In this document: in pieces, positions 29,928 to 35,800 of the stretch | Numbering within the stretch: position 1 is the stretch's first letter | Layout: the number at the start of each line of letters is the position of its first letter | Origin: Candidatus Hermodarchaeota archaeon | Lineage (GTDB): Archaea; Asgardarchaeota; Hermodarchaeia; Hermodarchaeales; Hermodarchaeaceae | DNA length: 42,576 nt | Assembly: GCA_016840065.1 (NCBI GenBank) | Contig: JAEOTB010000006.1 | Location: 1-42,576, forward strand | Direction of reading: 5' to 3' | Notes under the pieces: model-generated | The model's database searches: none | Told to the model about the DNA's origin: nothing | Seen by the model: only the letters and a program-made list of their open reading frames with translations | Position numbers and translations under genes: made by a program

Positions 29928-30206
29928 CTTATGATATTTTTTGGGGTCTTAAAATGCTCTAAAACCTGTTTTAACACCGAAAATAACTGGAAAATCTTCT
30001 AAGAAGAAGTAATTACCCATTATCATCAGAAAGGGGCATGGAGAATCCCTTAAAACATGATTTCTCGCGTGTTTTTGACTCAGTGATTGGGAAAAATTTG
30101 ATGAGGAAAATTTAGTTGAGCATAATTATGTCGAGCCAACTTTTTCCCTCCAAGTAGAACATATTAATGATGGAGACACTGAAACTGGTTTAGGAAGTGA
30201 GTTGAA

Positions 30207-30413
30207 TTGAGTAGGTATATCGACAGGCTGCATTGCCCGCATTGCGGTAAAACGCACTCAACGAATCAGTGGCCAGAAAATGGTGACTGGGTACCCTTCT
30301 ACTATCAAGAAGAGCGTGGGAACTTCAACCTAGAGGTCACCTGCCCGTACTGTGGTAAAGACTGGTATGTAGTGTGGGATCGGGACCCAGGCCCTATCAG
30401 AAGAGTGCGGTAA
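30207..30413 (+). CDS. Small zinc-ribbon protein (2 x CPxC)
   Basis: CPHCGK ... CPYCGK. Confidence 0.75.
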   Translation: MSRYIDRLHCPHCGKTHSTNQWPENGDWVPFYYQEERGNFNLEVTCPYCGKDWYVVWDRDPGPIRRVR

Positions 30414-30482
30414 ATAATCAGAAAAATTAAGTAATAAACCCCTGTAATGTGAATCAGTGGAAAGAAAGGTGGGTGATTCTTA

Positions 30483-30734
30483 ATGAAATCGAAGTTAGCT
30501 GACATTATCCTAGAATATTACAAAGTGAAGATTCTGTTACTTAGAGCAAGCGGTTCGCACTTGTCTGTGGAGGAAATCGAGGAAAATCAGGAACGCTTTT
30601 CTCGCGAGGCTTTTGTTTACATCCAACAGGAACAAAAAACACGCAGACTCGATGGTCTTAGGGCGGACGATTCTGAAGAAGTAATACGAGAAATACTCGA
30701 TGAATTCGTTCAGATCTGGGATTTCCCAGAATGA
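30483..30734 (+). CDS. Small helical hypothetical protein, paralog 1
   Basis: GGTGA ribosome-binding site; aligns with 30910..31182. Confidence 0.75.
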   Translation: MKSKLADIILEYYKVKILLLRASGSHLSVEEIEENQERFSREAFVYIQQEQKTRRLDGLRADDSEEVIREILDEFVQIWDFPE

Positions 30735-31270
30735 AAAACTCCGCCGATGAGTAGTAACTGCTGCAAATTCGCCTAATTCCCAACCGATTTGTACGTCGTT
30801 TGGGAATGAGGTCCTGGTCCCATCAGAAAAGTGTACCAAACAATCAGTGAATTTTAAAACAAAGCATTTATGAAGTTCACAATATGTGAATAGAAATAAG
30901 TGATTCTTGATGTGGCCGTATCCGAAAATCATCAAGTCTGCTTACGAAATAGCAGTTATGTTGTTTACACAAAGCCATCAGGATTTGTCAAAGGATAGGA
31001 TGGACAATATCATTGAGGAAAACTGGGAACTCTTCTCTCGTTCTGCAAAGAGTTACATTATGGAAACAAATAGAAGTCGCAGACTTGAAGGTCTTGAGAC
31101 GTTATCTACTGAATCCCAGATACGAGTATTACTGGCGGATTTCGCTCAAATCTATATTTTCGTTACCGAAGGAATTCACTAGAAGCAATATTTTCGTTCG
31201 CTAAAATCTGGGGTTTACTGGAGTGAAGAACTCCGTCGATGACTAGTAATTGTTGAGGATTCGCCTATTT
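30732..31270 (+). repeat. 47-bp imperfect direct repeat (30732-30778 and 31224-31270)
   Basis: tgaaaaactccgccgatgagtagtaactgctgcaaattcgcctaatt vs tgaagaactccgtcgatgactagtaattgttgaggattcgcctattt; 38/47 identical, no gaps. Confidence 0.85.
30910..31182 (+). CDS. Small helical hypothetical protein, paralog 2
   Basis: Shares IEENxExFSRxAxxYI...RRL[DE]GL...E..IR..L..F.QI..F with 30483..30734. Confidence 0.75.
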   Translation: MWPYPKIIKSAYEIAVMLFTQSHQDLSKDRMDNIIEENWELFSRSAKSYIMETNRSRRLEGLETLSTESQIRVLLADFAQIYIFVTEGIH

Positions 31271-31292
31271 GGAACCTCTTCCGAGTTTTTCC

Positions 31293-32237
31293 TTAAAGGC
31301 GCTGGTTCGCGGGGTGTACCTCACAGGTCTGGTTCTTGCAGGTAGAGCACTCCTTAGAGCTATGCGTCCAGAAGCCATGGAAGCGCTCAACGAACTGTTT
31401 TACAAATTCTGGATTATTGGTCCAGCTCATTTGTTCCCCTACACCTGATAGGCCTTTCACGGTGAAGTTCGAGCTTCCTTCTAGGACTTCTGCATCGTCA
31501 ATTATTAGCGCTTTGATGTGTAATATGCTGCAGACGACGATTTCGATTTTGTCGGATAATTTGAGAAGTTTGTTTATCGCTTTTGAGAAGTGGTCACTCT
31601 TGCTTCCTAGGGCTTGTGGGTCGTTAGTTAAGAGGCGAACTGAAAAGCCATCCTCGGCTTTTGCGGCAAGCCGCTCTAGCAGATTGACCTCACAGTCATC
31701 CTTTCCGACTTTTATGGTTCTAACATCAGAAAGAGTCATCGTCATCAATCTGATGGATTTCTTTGCCCGATTGATCATACCTACTAGGGCTCGAGCGATT
31801 TCAATACCTTCGAGCACCTCGTGTGCAACATCTTCTGGGGCAACTGGTTCGGTTTCTACTTTGGGCTCTTCTTCCTCTGGGGGAATGAAAGCTTCCTCGG
31901 TTTCGCTTTCAGTCGGGGGAGTGACGGGTTGTTCGGTGTCTGGCTGGGGATCGGGTGTAGTTATCTGTGGTGCAGGATAGAAGCTATCAAGGGCTTCGAC
32001 AAGTTCCAAAGGTAATGGTTCGCCGTTCCGGAGGACCTTTGTGATTTCAATCATTACTTCTGCGCGTCTAACGGCTATCCTGTGGGCCTTTCCTGAGGAG
32101 TGCTTTGCGATTCCGCTGAAGGCTTCAGCAGCTTTAAGAGCTGCCTTGGAGGCTCGTTCAAAATCGCCTTTACTCATGAACTCTCGCACCAGCAGAAGCG
32201 CCTCCCTTGCTACTCGACCAAGCCTAGTCAAACTCAA
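31293..32237 (-). CDS. Phospholipase D-fold (single HKD) protein with a MIT-like N-terminal helical bundle
   Basis: LHIKALIIDD...EGSSNFT..G; acidic/Pro linker; three-helix N-terminus; C-terminal CSTCKNQTCEVH. Confidence 0.85.
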   Translation of the reverse strand: MSLTRLGRVAREALLLVREFMSKGDFERASKAALKAAEAFSGIAKHSSGKAHRIAVRRAEVMIEITKVLRNGEPLPLELVEALDSFYPAPQITTPDPQPDTEQPVTPPTESETEEAFIPPEEEEPKVETEPVAPEDVAHEVLEGIEIARALVGMINRAKKSIRLMTMTLSDVRTIKVGKDDCEVNLLERLAAKAEDGFSVRLLTNDPQALGSKSDHFSKAINKLLKLSDKIEIVVCSILHIKALIIDDAEVLEGSSNFTVKGLSGVGEQMSWTNNPEFVKQFVERFHGFWTHSSKECSTCKNQTCEVHPANQRL

Positions 32238-32329
32238 CCATGTGCACTCCTAATAATCTAAGAAAGTGTTACACAGATTAATCAGAAGTAAGATGATAAT
32301 AACTCTTGGTTTTCAGGTTCGATGAACTT

Positions 32330-32830
32330 TTAGAGCATCACAAGGGCTAGAAAGCCTAGCCCTAACCCAGCGATTAATATGAGTAGGGCTGAGGAGGGCT
32401 CGAGGTCAAGAAGGAAGGGAAGAGGTATGACGATCAAGGGTAGACAAAGAGGAAGCAGGCCAAGAGCCCATGAATTCACGATTGGGTGCATAAGGTAGTT
32501 CATTGCCAAGTAGACAGCAGCGAAGACATTTACCAAGTAGGCTGCAGTAGCAAACTTCCTCCATAGAATTCGTGGAGGACGAGGTGATTGTCCCTGGAGC
32601 ATCATCCAAGTCGCCATTCGCTGGGGCGAGGCAACTCCGTTCGTGGGTAGTGATTGGTGTTGTCCATCGCTTTGGAAAGCTGATGACATTAATCTGAGTT
32701 GCACTATCCACTTGCGGAACTCTGCTTTTCCTTTAATTGCATGATAAACCTGTTTAGCAACAAAAGCCTCACTTATGAGAATTCCCAATTGAACGATGTC
32801 AAGAAGTAGAATGTCAATGATGTTTATCAT
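32330..32830 (-). CDS. Hypothetical membrane protein
   Basis: GGAGG upstream of ATG 32830, 8 nt after the peptidase stop; about 4 TM. Confidence 0.7.
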   Translation of the reverse strand: MINIIDILLLDIVQLGILISEAFVAKQVYHAIKGKAEFRKWIVQLRLMSSAFQSDGQHQSLPTNGVASPQRMATWMMLQGQSPRPPRILWRKFATAAYLVNVFAAVYLAMNYLMHPIVNSWALGLLPLCLPLIVIPLPFLLDLEPSSALLILIAGLGLGFLALVML

Positions 32831-32837
32831 GTAATTT

Positions 32838-35800
32838 TCATCCTCCTTCCCTTCCCTGCCCTGATGATTCACCAAGATTGGCGATGAGGCGACGGAGATG
32901 CCGTTTATCCGCTCCTAGGAGTACTATATGAATCTCGTCCCCCTGGCGGTTATAGGCTAGTACTGCCTGCTCGTTAGAGAATCGACCTTGTCCCCTATGT
33001 GATAATCCGAATCGCCGACTGACTTGGGCTATCCTACTCTCTAGCTGTTCTGAGAAAGGATAGGATTTCACCAATCTCTCTCGGGGGCTAGAACCAGGAT
33101 AGCCAAGTGTTGAAGGGCTGCTTCCATACTCTGTTAGCCCCGTGATTCTTCCCGAAGGGGATTTGTGTTTTGAACTCCGCTGCCAGCAAATCCCCAAAAG
33201 GATTAGACCCACTAGGACAGCGGGAGGCAGAAGAGATATGGTGAGATTCAGAAGAGAATAATTCACTTCGATGAGAGCCTGATCACTGCAGAGTGTCTGC
33301 TCCTCTAATTTCAAGTGGACTCTAAGGAGGCGAGAACCGATGTCTGCTGGATTTGAGGGATTATACAATACTGGCACCCTAGCAGATATTGTTTGTTCCG
33401 CCATCACAGAAATCTGGCAGCCTCCTTCAAAGTTGTCTCCCTCGACGATTACCTCGAAGGTTCTAGCTCGGCTACCTTGGTTAGTAATATTCACAAGGAT
33501 TTCGAAGGGCTGCTGTTGGAGAACCTTAGATGGAGGCTCATCGAGATAAATATTGAATGCAGATAAAACCTCCAGTGGATACACCTCAAAGAGTAAGACG
33601 AGTTCCGATATTGAAACCGATAGTACTAACGAGTAATTACCTGGTGGAGTTGTGGGAGAAATGTCAAAGTCAAGGCGGAAGAAGTTCAGACCAGGCATTA
33701 ACAGAAGGTTATCTAGTGACGCTGCTCCCAGGAGGGGCGCTCCAAAGGACAAGTTGACATAAGCAGGTGTCATCCAAGTGGAGTTTATCATACATTGAGC
33801 AGCCAGCATTTCACCGGCTAGTTCTGCTTCAACTGCTCCTACACTTCCTACACAAATGGGAATGGGTGAAACACTCAGCTTTGCTCTGAAACCAGAACCA
33901 CTTTCTGCTAGGATTGAGTAACTCAGGGGCGACTGAATAAACACTTCTAGTGTGGCGACACCCGTTTCGTTGGTCACTAGTTGAGTTGACTCTAAACCTG
34001 ATAGATCAGAAGTCACGTTCAACTGTACTAGCTCATTAGGGAAGCCAGCCATTGTGAGAAAATCACACATCACAACAAAGATTGTTGTGTGATCACCAAC
34101 CCTCGGCGGCTTCGTACCTACTCCTAGTAATATCCCCTCTTCCCTGCCATCAACGAGCCATTCAAGACTCGCAGTTGCCATGCTTTGAACGGCATTATCT
34201 AGGGGAGTATCAACACCTAGGAAGAGAATGGATGTTTCAGTATCAGGGTCAGCAAAGAACGCCATCGAACACCAAGTATCATTGCCCACCAAACTCAGCA
34301 TTTGTTCATGTATAGTCACGGCAAAAACGGAAGGGTAGGCTACAAAAGGCTTAGCGACAGGACCACTAAGAAGGTAGGGGCTGGCAATTGCTGGGTGTAA
34401 AGAGATAAATCCGTCAACATAGTGCGATTGAGTCCCAATTGATGTGGTTTCCACGCCAGCTAGAATTTCAAGGAGCTGGGCTCCTGATTGTCCTAGAGCT
34501 AGAATTGGTATTTGATTCTGTGTTAGTGATGTAGTTAGAGTACTATCTAGGACGAGAGCTGGATCGAGGACTAGGGCAGTGTAGGTACTGGTGTTGTGAT
34601 CCAGGTAATCGATGACAGTGACATTGGCAACCTCATCAAGAATAGGACTCCAGTTCTCAGCAAAGTCTGGGGGACTTGGGGGTATCTGATATGCTAGTGA
34701 AAGAATAAGCGAGATTACCAGTTTTGAAGCGTTACAAAGATTACTGGGATTACAACTACCGATCACATCATTCTTTGTATGCTTATTGGGGTCTGGGTAC
34801 TGATTCGTTGACAAGGTCAGCGAAGGTATTTCAGAAGTGTGGAATGTCCATTCCGATGTGCTCCATGCAGATCTATGCTCAACATCAGAGAGGCTTTCCA
34901 CACGTGGTTTCACCATATCCTCCATAGGTATACCCAGTAACACACTAATCTCTTCTAATGGGTCAGTTAAGCTAGTAACATCCTCGTCAGGATAGTGGTA
35001 AATCGCCAGTTGTATTGAATCAAATTCCCCTGAATATCCCACTTCATCCACATTCAGGACCATGGCTGTTGAGGAATCGACTCCCAAATTCTCTAGATCC
35101 TCTGTGACCATTTGGTTGGAGCCCCAAAGATGGCGAGTGTTGTTTCCTTCTTCGCCCCCTAGAAAGCCGAAGAGAATATTCCACTCCCCAAACATGTCAG
35201 GAATCTTTGTGAGGATCCGGAGAGCCTCAAGTAACACAACAACACCCGCGGCGTTATCATTAGCACCAGGTGCCGAAGTAGATGTAAGTCCGAGATAGCT
35301 GTATCTCGCTGAATCGACATGACAGGTCACGATTAGACTCGGTTGATTTCCATCTAAATCCCAGGGTGAAATGTAAAGGTTCCGAGTCCAGTAGGGTCGA
35401 AGTTCAAATCCGATACCACTCCAAACCTGTCGCATGACAGGGAACCAAACCGACTCTGGGGTTAATCCGAGTTCCACTAATTCGGATTCCAATAGATTAA
35501 GGCTGGCATTCCCGCCGCCTTCAAAGGGGTGGCGGCTGTCAAAGCTGGTGAAAGAGTGGAGAAGCCCCATTTGACGCGTCGCGTTTACACGAGCTGAGGT
35601 CAGCAGCTGCCAATGGGCCAAGTTTGAAACATTGGTAATATATGCCGCAGATAAGGGAGAAACGGATGGAGATATGGAGGCAGGACAGTTTGGGGCGGCA
35701 TCTGGAGTCGAATTCAAACCTAGCTCTCTGTCAAGTGCGGGAAAAGAAACACCACTGGAGTGCTGAGCTACTGCTAAGGGAAATAGAAGCAAACCGATGC

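Follow-up and report, generated by a model that had tools for sequence, protein, structure and literature searches.

An archaeal protein joining an MIT-like bundle to an intact phospholipase D domain, a candidate ESCRT-III-recruited enzyme in Hermodarchaeota

The window analyzed here is a stretch of 42,576 nucleotides from a Candidatus Hermodarchaeota archaeon (contig JAEOTB010000006.1), and the subject of this report is a gene at positions 31293-32237 on its minus strand. The gene codes for a protein of 314 residues in which an MIT-like three-helix bundle is joined through an acidic, disordered linker to a phospholipase D (PLD) domain with an intact HKD motif, followed by a short Cys/His tail. 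As far as its sequence can tell, the protein is best read as an active enzyme recruited to ESCRT-III, a component of the ESCRT machinery (endosomal sorting complex required for transport). On balance we lean towards a dimeric phosphodiesterase, probably a nuclease, that docks on ESCRT-III polymers through its MIT-like bundles and whose layout is convergent with that of MITD1.

In eukaryotes some twenty different enzymes are docked by their MIT domains on ESCRT-III, which cuts membranes; among them are Vps4, spastin, calpain-7, AMSH, USP8, ULK3 and MITD1 (PMC9477494), and in archaea the MIT domain is treated as diagnostic of Vps4 (PMC10936438). The literature searched contains no paper on an archaeal MIT-PLD protein and nothing for Asgard together with MITD1 or for Asgard MIT domains together with phospholipase D, and no MIT-PLD protein is mentioned in the main text of the main ESCRT survey. 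The architecture described here suggests that enzymes may have been tethered to ESCRT-III before eukaryotes arose. If the bundle binds ESCRT-III tails, the archaea most closely related to eukaryotes already had accessory enzymes attached to ESCRT-III, and the bundle with tail peptides would provide a tractable recombinant system for the origin of the code by which MIT domains read MIT-interacting motifs (MIMs). If a catalytically competent PLD of the nuclease type acted where ESCRT-III is found, membrane scission would also be connected with nucleic acid clearance, a connection consistent with the reported binding of DNA by Asgard ESCRT-III (bioRxiv 10.1101/2021.11.29.470303).

Gene structure, layout and conservation

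The open reading frame begins with a TTG codon, which is the true start of the gene. It is taken as such because a GGAGTG ribosome-binding site lies 7 nt upstream and because residues 1-20 are nearly invariant in homologues, 20 of which have ATG at the equivalent site and align from residue 1. The public gene call (P0002, 294 aa) begins instead at Met21, which removes most of helix 1 of the N-terminal domain. Residues below are counted from the TTG start, and the conservation of motif and tail residues was counted over 21 family sequences.

31293-32237, minus strand: whole gene, 314 codons plus stop, TTG start (open reading frame and homologue alignment; 48 homologous clusters)
32245-32250, minus strand: ribosome-binding site GGAGTG, 7 nt upstream of the TTG codon (identified in the sequence itself)
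32022-32237, minus strand: MIT-like three-helix bundle, residues 1-72 (helices 3-22, 26-45 and 49-70), strongly basic (mean net charge +8)
31974-32021, minus strand: conserved EPLPxxLVxALDSFYP segment, residues 73-88, with a short helix 4 (77-85) after the bundle (82% column identity; helix present in both models)
31833-31973, minus strand: disordered acidic Pro/Glu linker, residues 89-135 (predicted local distance difference test score, pLDDT, 30-38; mean net charge -12; 17% pairwise identity)
31359-31832, minus strand: single-HKD PLD-fold domain, residues 136-293
31467-31520, minus strand: HKD catalytic motif H240-I-K242-ALII-D247-DAEVLE-G254-S255-S-N257 (invariant or conserved in 20 of 21 sequences)
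31530-31532, minus strand: Cys236, four residues before the catalytic His (20 of 21 sequences; also in the distant relatives P0053-P0056, P0067, P0122, P0106 and P0119)
31296-31358, minus strand: Cys/His C-terminal tail, residues 294-314, C297-x2-C300-x4-C305-x2-H308 (20 of 21 sequences)

An initial annotation, made from the letters of the window, had described a three-helix pattern in the N-terminal ~70 residues, a Pro/Glu linker, a PLD domain with an intact HxKxxxxD...GSxN motif and a CxxCx4CxxH tail, and all four stand. Residues 3-70 form three helices of ~20 residues each with pLDDT ~95, the linker is poorly ordered and acidic, the PLD domain is matched by its Pfam model (see below), and the motif and tail residues are kept throughout nearly the whole family.

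A search of 5.8 billion proteins identified the 48 homologous clusters, with E values of 1e-71 to 1e-190, far beyond what chance would give, and most of them full-length; all of the named ones are Asgard (Hermodarchaeota, Thorarchaeota and 'Promethearchaeota'). The family is present in 14 species-level genomes, mostly labelled Hermodarchaeota. When 301 Asgard genomes are searched with a profile of the N-terminal domain, it is found in 15 of the 18 other genomes belonging to the window's own archaeal family and in none of the remaining families. Members compared in pairs are 75% identical over the bundle, 77% over the helix-4 segment, 70% over the PLD domain and 76% over the tail, and the linker (17%) keeps its acidity across the family but not its sequence.

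The MIT-like bundle and its candidate ligands

Modelled alone with AlphaFold2 (pLDDT 93.5), the N-terminal domain has the same three helices at residues 3-22, 26-45 and 49-70, with a short additional helix at 77-84. It is an antiparallel three-helix bundle of about 70 residues that superposes on known MIT domains, and its top three Foldseek matches are archaeal Vps4 MIT domains. Foldseek also lists ribosomal protein S20, an RNA-binding three-helix protein (template modelling, TM, score 0.51-0.58), but the MIT matches have higher TM scores and lower root-mean-square deviations (rmsd). Comparison with hhalign of the N-terminal profile and a Vps4 MIT profile, built from 13 Vps4 MIT domains of the window's and related Asgard genomes, gives P 9.8e-5 and a probability of 58% over 58 columns that span all three helices. 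The real score of 26.5 can be set against 11.5-12.1 for reversed alignments and a mean of 10 and maximum of 19.5 for 400 column shuffles, none of which (0/400) reaches it. When the N-terminal profile is run against the 301 genomes, its sole match outside its own families is to residues 7-71 of a 384-aa protein (E 6.5e-4), which is MIT+AAA+Vps4_C by Pfam and adjoins a Snf7 gene. In the ESM Atlas every one of the named clusters that lie nearest is MIT-type (scores 0.79-0.83), which we treat as a lead only.

The Pfam MIT model (PF04212) gives no match at E up to 10 to the window protein or to 15 family members, and leaves the window protein unmatched at E up to 1 in a scan of its own genome. The MIT-like character proposed in the initial annotation is thus borne out by fold and by profile comparison and not by the Pfam model, and we consider it very likely that the N-terminal domain is a diverged MIT homologue. 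NCBIfam likewise gives no MIT match for the domain. In Pfam and NCBIfam its sole weak matches are to PaREP1, an assignment that was dropped as too short and sub-threshold, with a best E of 0.011 in 5 of 15 members over about 30 residues.

The MIT domain of Vps4/CdvC (2w2u, 2v6y; PF04212) is like the bundle in size, topology and signature (G-x4-A ... AAE ... RAE-x2-I-x3-K-x-LR). The bundle differs from it in having four extra residues in helix 1 and the additional conserved helix 4, in being much more basic (net charge +8, isoelectric point (pI) 10.8), in scoring below the Pfam threshold and in lacking the conserved Tyr of helix 2; it is also joined to a PLD enzyme, whereas the Vps4 MIT domain is joined to an AAA ATPase. 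The helix-4 segment is possibly a pseudo-MIM acting in cis, or a capping helix.

That Asgard archaea encode ESCRT holds for the genome from which the window comes, where contig C69 carries one Vps4 gene, with a Pfam-positive MIT domain, together with two ESCRT-III genes of the Snf7 type. As the window is contig C16, the gene described here is not genomically linked to them. Each of the two ESCRT-III proteins has an acidic C-terminal tail in which MIM-like motifs occur, ...QLEEEIRRLKEES in the first protein and ...QLPTVPVG...KELDRLRKELEE in the second, and these tails are plausible candidate ligands for the basic MIT-type bundle.

The same bundle occurs in a second fusion in the window's genus, where it precedes a transglutaminase-like core (window's genome G000, contig C44:96-929, plus strand, equal to L068:96-929; P0078 type, 277 aa). 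The core is recognized by Pfam at E 3e-6, has a visible Cys/His/Asp set, and the fusion is found only in this genus. Its bundle aligns by hhalign with the window family at P 1e-11 and, taken alone, with Vps4 MIT at P 4e-4, and the architecture recalls that of eukaryotic calpain-7, which combines MIT domains with a Cys protease. One Asgard genome of another family (G023) has seven sub-threshold or threshold MIT matches, several of them in giant proteins of 809-2130 aa, and MIT-like modules outside Vps4 may be more widely distributed among Asgard archaea.

The PLD module and the comparison with MITD1

The PLD domain matches PLDc_2 over residues 152-290 with 63.2 bits (cut-off 27; E 2.9e-17), and the whole-protein model has a confident PLD fold. 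H240, K242, D247, G254, S255 and N257 are each conserved in 20-21 of the 21 sequences, the one exception being P0048, in which Gln replaces the His and the tail is missing. The best PDB sequence matches of the family profile are Zucchini/PLD6 (2.2e-5), Nuc (1.8e-4) and PLD3, and a structural re-ranking of 1000 chains returns NucT and Nuc as the best matches of the PLD part. As such, the module is apparently an active phosphodiesterase of the Nuc/NucT/Zucchini type. The CxxCx4C motif (or its x3 form) is common to most of the distant PLD relatives examined, with the third Cys absent in P0067, and an equivalent of C236 four residues before the catalytic His is common to the Cys-tail PLD subfamily. 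The residues C236, C297, C300, C305 and H308 probably bind zinc as a cluster beside the catalytic strand, which would hold the tail to that strand.

The chains of Nuc (Salmonella, 1byr) and NucT (Helicobacter, 6ehi) are ~155-160 residues long and are spanned by the PLD domain alone. Unlike the window protein they have no room for an MIT-like module, an acidic tether or a CxxCx4CxxH tail, and we take both to be secreted and to lack a Cys tail. Zucchini (PLD6 or MitoPLD; 4ggj, 4gel), the best sequence-profile match, is a single-HKD protein like that of the window; it is dimeric and has a Cys/His element that binds zinc. This zinc finger is internal to the domain, not C-terminal, and Zucchini has an N-terminal transmembrane anchor helix; the window protein has no transmembrane segment and carries the MIT-like bundle in its place.

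Some distant Cys-tail PLD relatives have clearer MIT N-termini, with Pfam MIT E values of 2.2e-5 (P0067) and 3.4e-3 (P0056) and hhalign P values against Vps4 MIT of 4e-7 to 9e-5 (P0056, P0067, P0122 and P0064). A profile of these relatives finds an orthologue of ~280 aa in 17 of the 18 other Hermod-family genomes searched and in all six genomes of a second family, and the N-terminus of this orthologue profile matches Vps4 MIT domains at E about 4e-9. The window's own genome encodes P0123, a 280-aa paralogue on contig C128:40793-41635 (plus strand; L079:8794-9636) with a canonical MIT domain, a PLD domain and a CxxCx4C motif, in which HFN and GSAP replace HxK and GSxN and the HKD is therefore dead. 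The P0123 gene is divergent from that of an XPB helicase, beyond which are genes for a PIN-like 629-aa protein and Bax1 (DUF790), and the arrangement is kept in L072. Paralogues of the P0123/P0122 type thus share an MIT-type bundle, a PLD domain and a CxxCx4C tail with the window protein, but have HxN and GSAP or GTAP motifs, a short linker, an MIT domain closer to that of Vps4 (P 2e-5) and a PLD domain in a different clade. From the distribution of the two families, each such genome holds one active MIT-like PLD and one dead canonical-MIT PLD. Among the active canonical-MIT proteins, P0056 (L071:9001-9771, on a JGI metagenome contig) has an RPA-like gene with an oligonucleotide-binding (OB) fold directly upstream and PCNA and Hjc genes nearby; its locus contains many tiny open reading frames and looks like a mobile element or a virus-like replication island.

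A phylogeny of PLD domains had been proposed with the initial annotation. The tree places the canonical-MIT PLDs, active and dead, in one clade (93/88) and the window's family elsewhere. Forcing all MIT-bearing PLDs into a single clade costs 16 log-likelihood units (approximately unbiased, AU, test p 0.028), a borderline result, the more so as the group was chosen once the tree had been inspected. A single fusion is accordingly not favoured, and MIT-PLD fusions seem, from these sequences, to have arisen more than once within archaea.

Human MITD1 (MIT domain 4a5x, with a PLD-like MIT_C domain) has the same layout as the window protein, with an MIT-type bundle, a linker and one PLD fold, and both proteins are expected to dimerise through the PLD fold and to be recruited by ESCRT-III tails. 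PMC9477494 reports MITD1 as an ESCRT-III-recruited member of the PLD family that stabilises the midbody, and cites Hadders et al. 2012 and Lee et al. 2012; the cited title of the former reports that the PLD-like domain binds membranes. The window protein differs in its Cys/His tail, its long acidic linker and an MIT domain too diverged for Pfam, and its C-terminal domain matches PLDc_2 and Nuc/NucT, not MIT_C. It also has an intact HKD, whereas MITD1 presumably lacks the catalytic HKD residues.

The MIT_C model (PF16565) has no match to the window protein at E up to 10, nor does it find anything at E up to 0.1 in the genome of the window or anything that exceeds the cut-off in the 301 Asgard genomes; two of the sub-cut-off matches were examined and are ABC ATPases. 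MITD1 is not found by a profile search of PDB sequences with the PLD part at E up to 10, and its C-terminal domain is neither among the Foldseek matches nor among the 50 best of the 1000 re-ranked structures, negatives that are still compatible with a distant relationship. By the domain that defines the family, the window protein is placed by these searches outside the MITD1 family. The initial annotation's suggestion of an archaeal counterpart or precursor of MITD1 is not sustained, the PLD domain being Nuc/NucT/Zucchini-like, and the MITD1-like layout most likely arose independently, by convergence, from archaeal Nuc-type PLDs. Judged by its motifs, the dead-HKD archaeal paralogue shows that decay from an active to an inactive MIT-PLD occurred independently.

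Proposed function, alternatives and gene neighbourhood

From the domain identities, the catalytic motif, their conservation and the MIM-like ESCRT-III tails we infer a cytosolic two-module enzyme, in which an N-terminal MIT-type reader would be connected by an acidic disordered tether of ~45 residues to a C-terminal PLD phosphodiesterase. The PLD module would homodimerise as in Nuc, NucT and Zucchini, with two HKD motifs building one active site, and because the module would be dimeric the enzyme would present two MIT-like readers. These paired readers could grip, with avidity, the acidic MIM-bearing C-terminal tails on polymerised ESCRT-III, and the phosphodiesterase would thereby be brought to places where ESCRT-III assembles, for example division necks or budding sites. 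Its substrate there might be DNA or RNA caught in the constricting neck. A broader and decidedly tentative proposal, which we hold to be possible but doubtful, is that Hermodarchaeial Asgards have a small 'MIT-ome' of Vps4 and at least three other ESCRT-III-docking MIT-type proteins (the active PLD, the dead-HKD PLD beside XPB-Bax1 and the transglutaminase-like protease), in which the active PLD cuts nucleic acid trapped in the division neck. If this is true, the role of ESCRT-III as a hub for enzyme recruitment is older than eukaryotes.

By analogy, nucleic acid is the most likely substrate, a phospholipid head group being less likely. We lean to a nuclease because of the structures that match best, the Cys/His knuckle and the DNA-metabolism genes surrounding MIT-PLD relatives, which are those for the RPA-like OB protein, PCNA and Hjc around P0056 and those for XPB and Bax1 beside both P0122 and P0123; the mildly acidic PLD domain (pI 5.4) weighs against it. 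Docking on ESCRT-III would be unchanged if the enzyme remodelled lipid head groups at constricting membranes, as a phospholipase or a transphosphatidylase, which we think unlikely. Membership of the PLD superfamily would accommodate such an activity, as would the acidity of the domain, the conserved small membrane protein encoded immediately upstream, the membrane binding reported for the PLD-like domain of MITD1, and Zucchini/PLD6, one of the closest matches, which is named cardiolipin hydrolase in its depositions. Set against these, the best structural matches NucT and Nuc are nucleases, as are most small single-HKD enzymes, relatives are found in DNA-metabolism contexts, the protein has no evident segment that is hydrophobic or could insert into a membrane, and Cys/His knuckles are more usual in proteins that bind nucleic acids. 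It is similarly improbable that the N-terminal domain is a basic bundle that binds nucleic acid or some other partner in place of ESCRT-III, the protein then being a stand-alone nuclease of DNA repair, turnover or defence. The charge of the bundle, the S20 match, the silence of the Pfam MIT model, the lack of linkage to the ESCRT genes and the position of the paralogue beside XPB-Bax1 all suit such a role, but the sequence-profile evidence is specific to MIT and the MIT matches surpass S20 in both TM score and rmsd. The PLD domain also matches the defence nucleases DpdK and DrmC at E 2e-11 to 3e-9; these scores are far under the NCBIfam cut-offs (37.8 bits against 100 for DpdK and 26.5 against 133 for DISARM DrmC), and both were rejected as generic PLD similarity. 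No PADLOC model is matched by the three neighbour genes scanned, which include no defence partners, and ten neighbour genes scanned contain no Pfam family typical of defence systems.

Very much less probable, to the point that we give it little weight, is an archaeal orthologue or direct precursor of MITD1, with an active MIT-PLD inherited by eukaryotes and its catalytic residues lost later. The empty MIT_C and MITD1 searches described above count against such descent, as do the confinement of the family to one Asgard family (15/18 genomes, 0 elsewhere) and the apparently repeated MIT-PLD fusions within archaea. An ESCRT-III-docked phosphodiesterase of independent archaeal origin is the reading we prefer.

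The gene lies in a conserved order of genes for a Prenyltrans-like protein of 1650 aa, an M28 peptidase, a small membrane protein, the PLD protein, a winged helix-turn-helix (wHTH) protein and a 110-aa protein. We treat this neighbourhood as weak evidence of function because its conservation is limited to one archaeal family. The small membrane protein, at 32330-32875 on the minus strand, is a multi-pass protein of 181 aa without a Pfam family whose gene overlaps the end of the M28 peptidase gene; in most of the related genomes examined, genes for orthologues of 165-168 aa occupy the position just upstream of that for the PLD protein, with two genes intervening in L011. On the plus strand, positions 29930-31290 of the window contain three small genes, one coding for a zinc ribbon of 68 aa and the others for two diverged paralogues, 83 and 91 aa long. 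This islet looks like an insertion, since the PLD and wHTH genes are only 300-400 nt apart in related genomes.

A second, closely similar copy of the gene is present on contig C45:2-916 of the same genome (minus strand; L069), with the same upstream neighbours (a 181-aa membrane protein and an M28 peptidase fragment). Rather than a paralogue, this copy is probably a variant from another strain or species that was binned into the same metagenome-assembled genome (contamination 5%). In related genomes (L011, L013, L015 and L016) a Roadblock/LC7 gene (128 aa) and a gene of ~205 aa lie a few kb downstream of the PLD gene, at about 12.1-13.3 kb in locus coordinates, and may constitute a small-GTPase regulatory pair.
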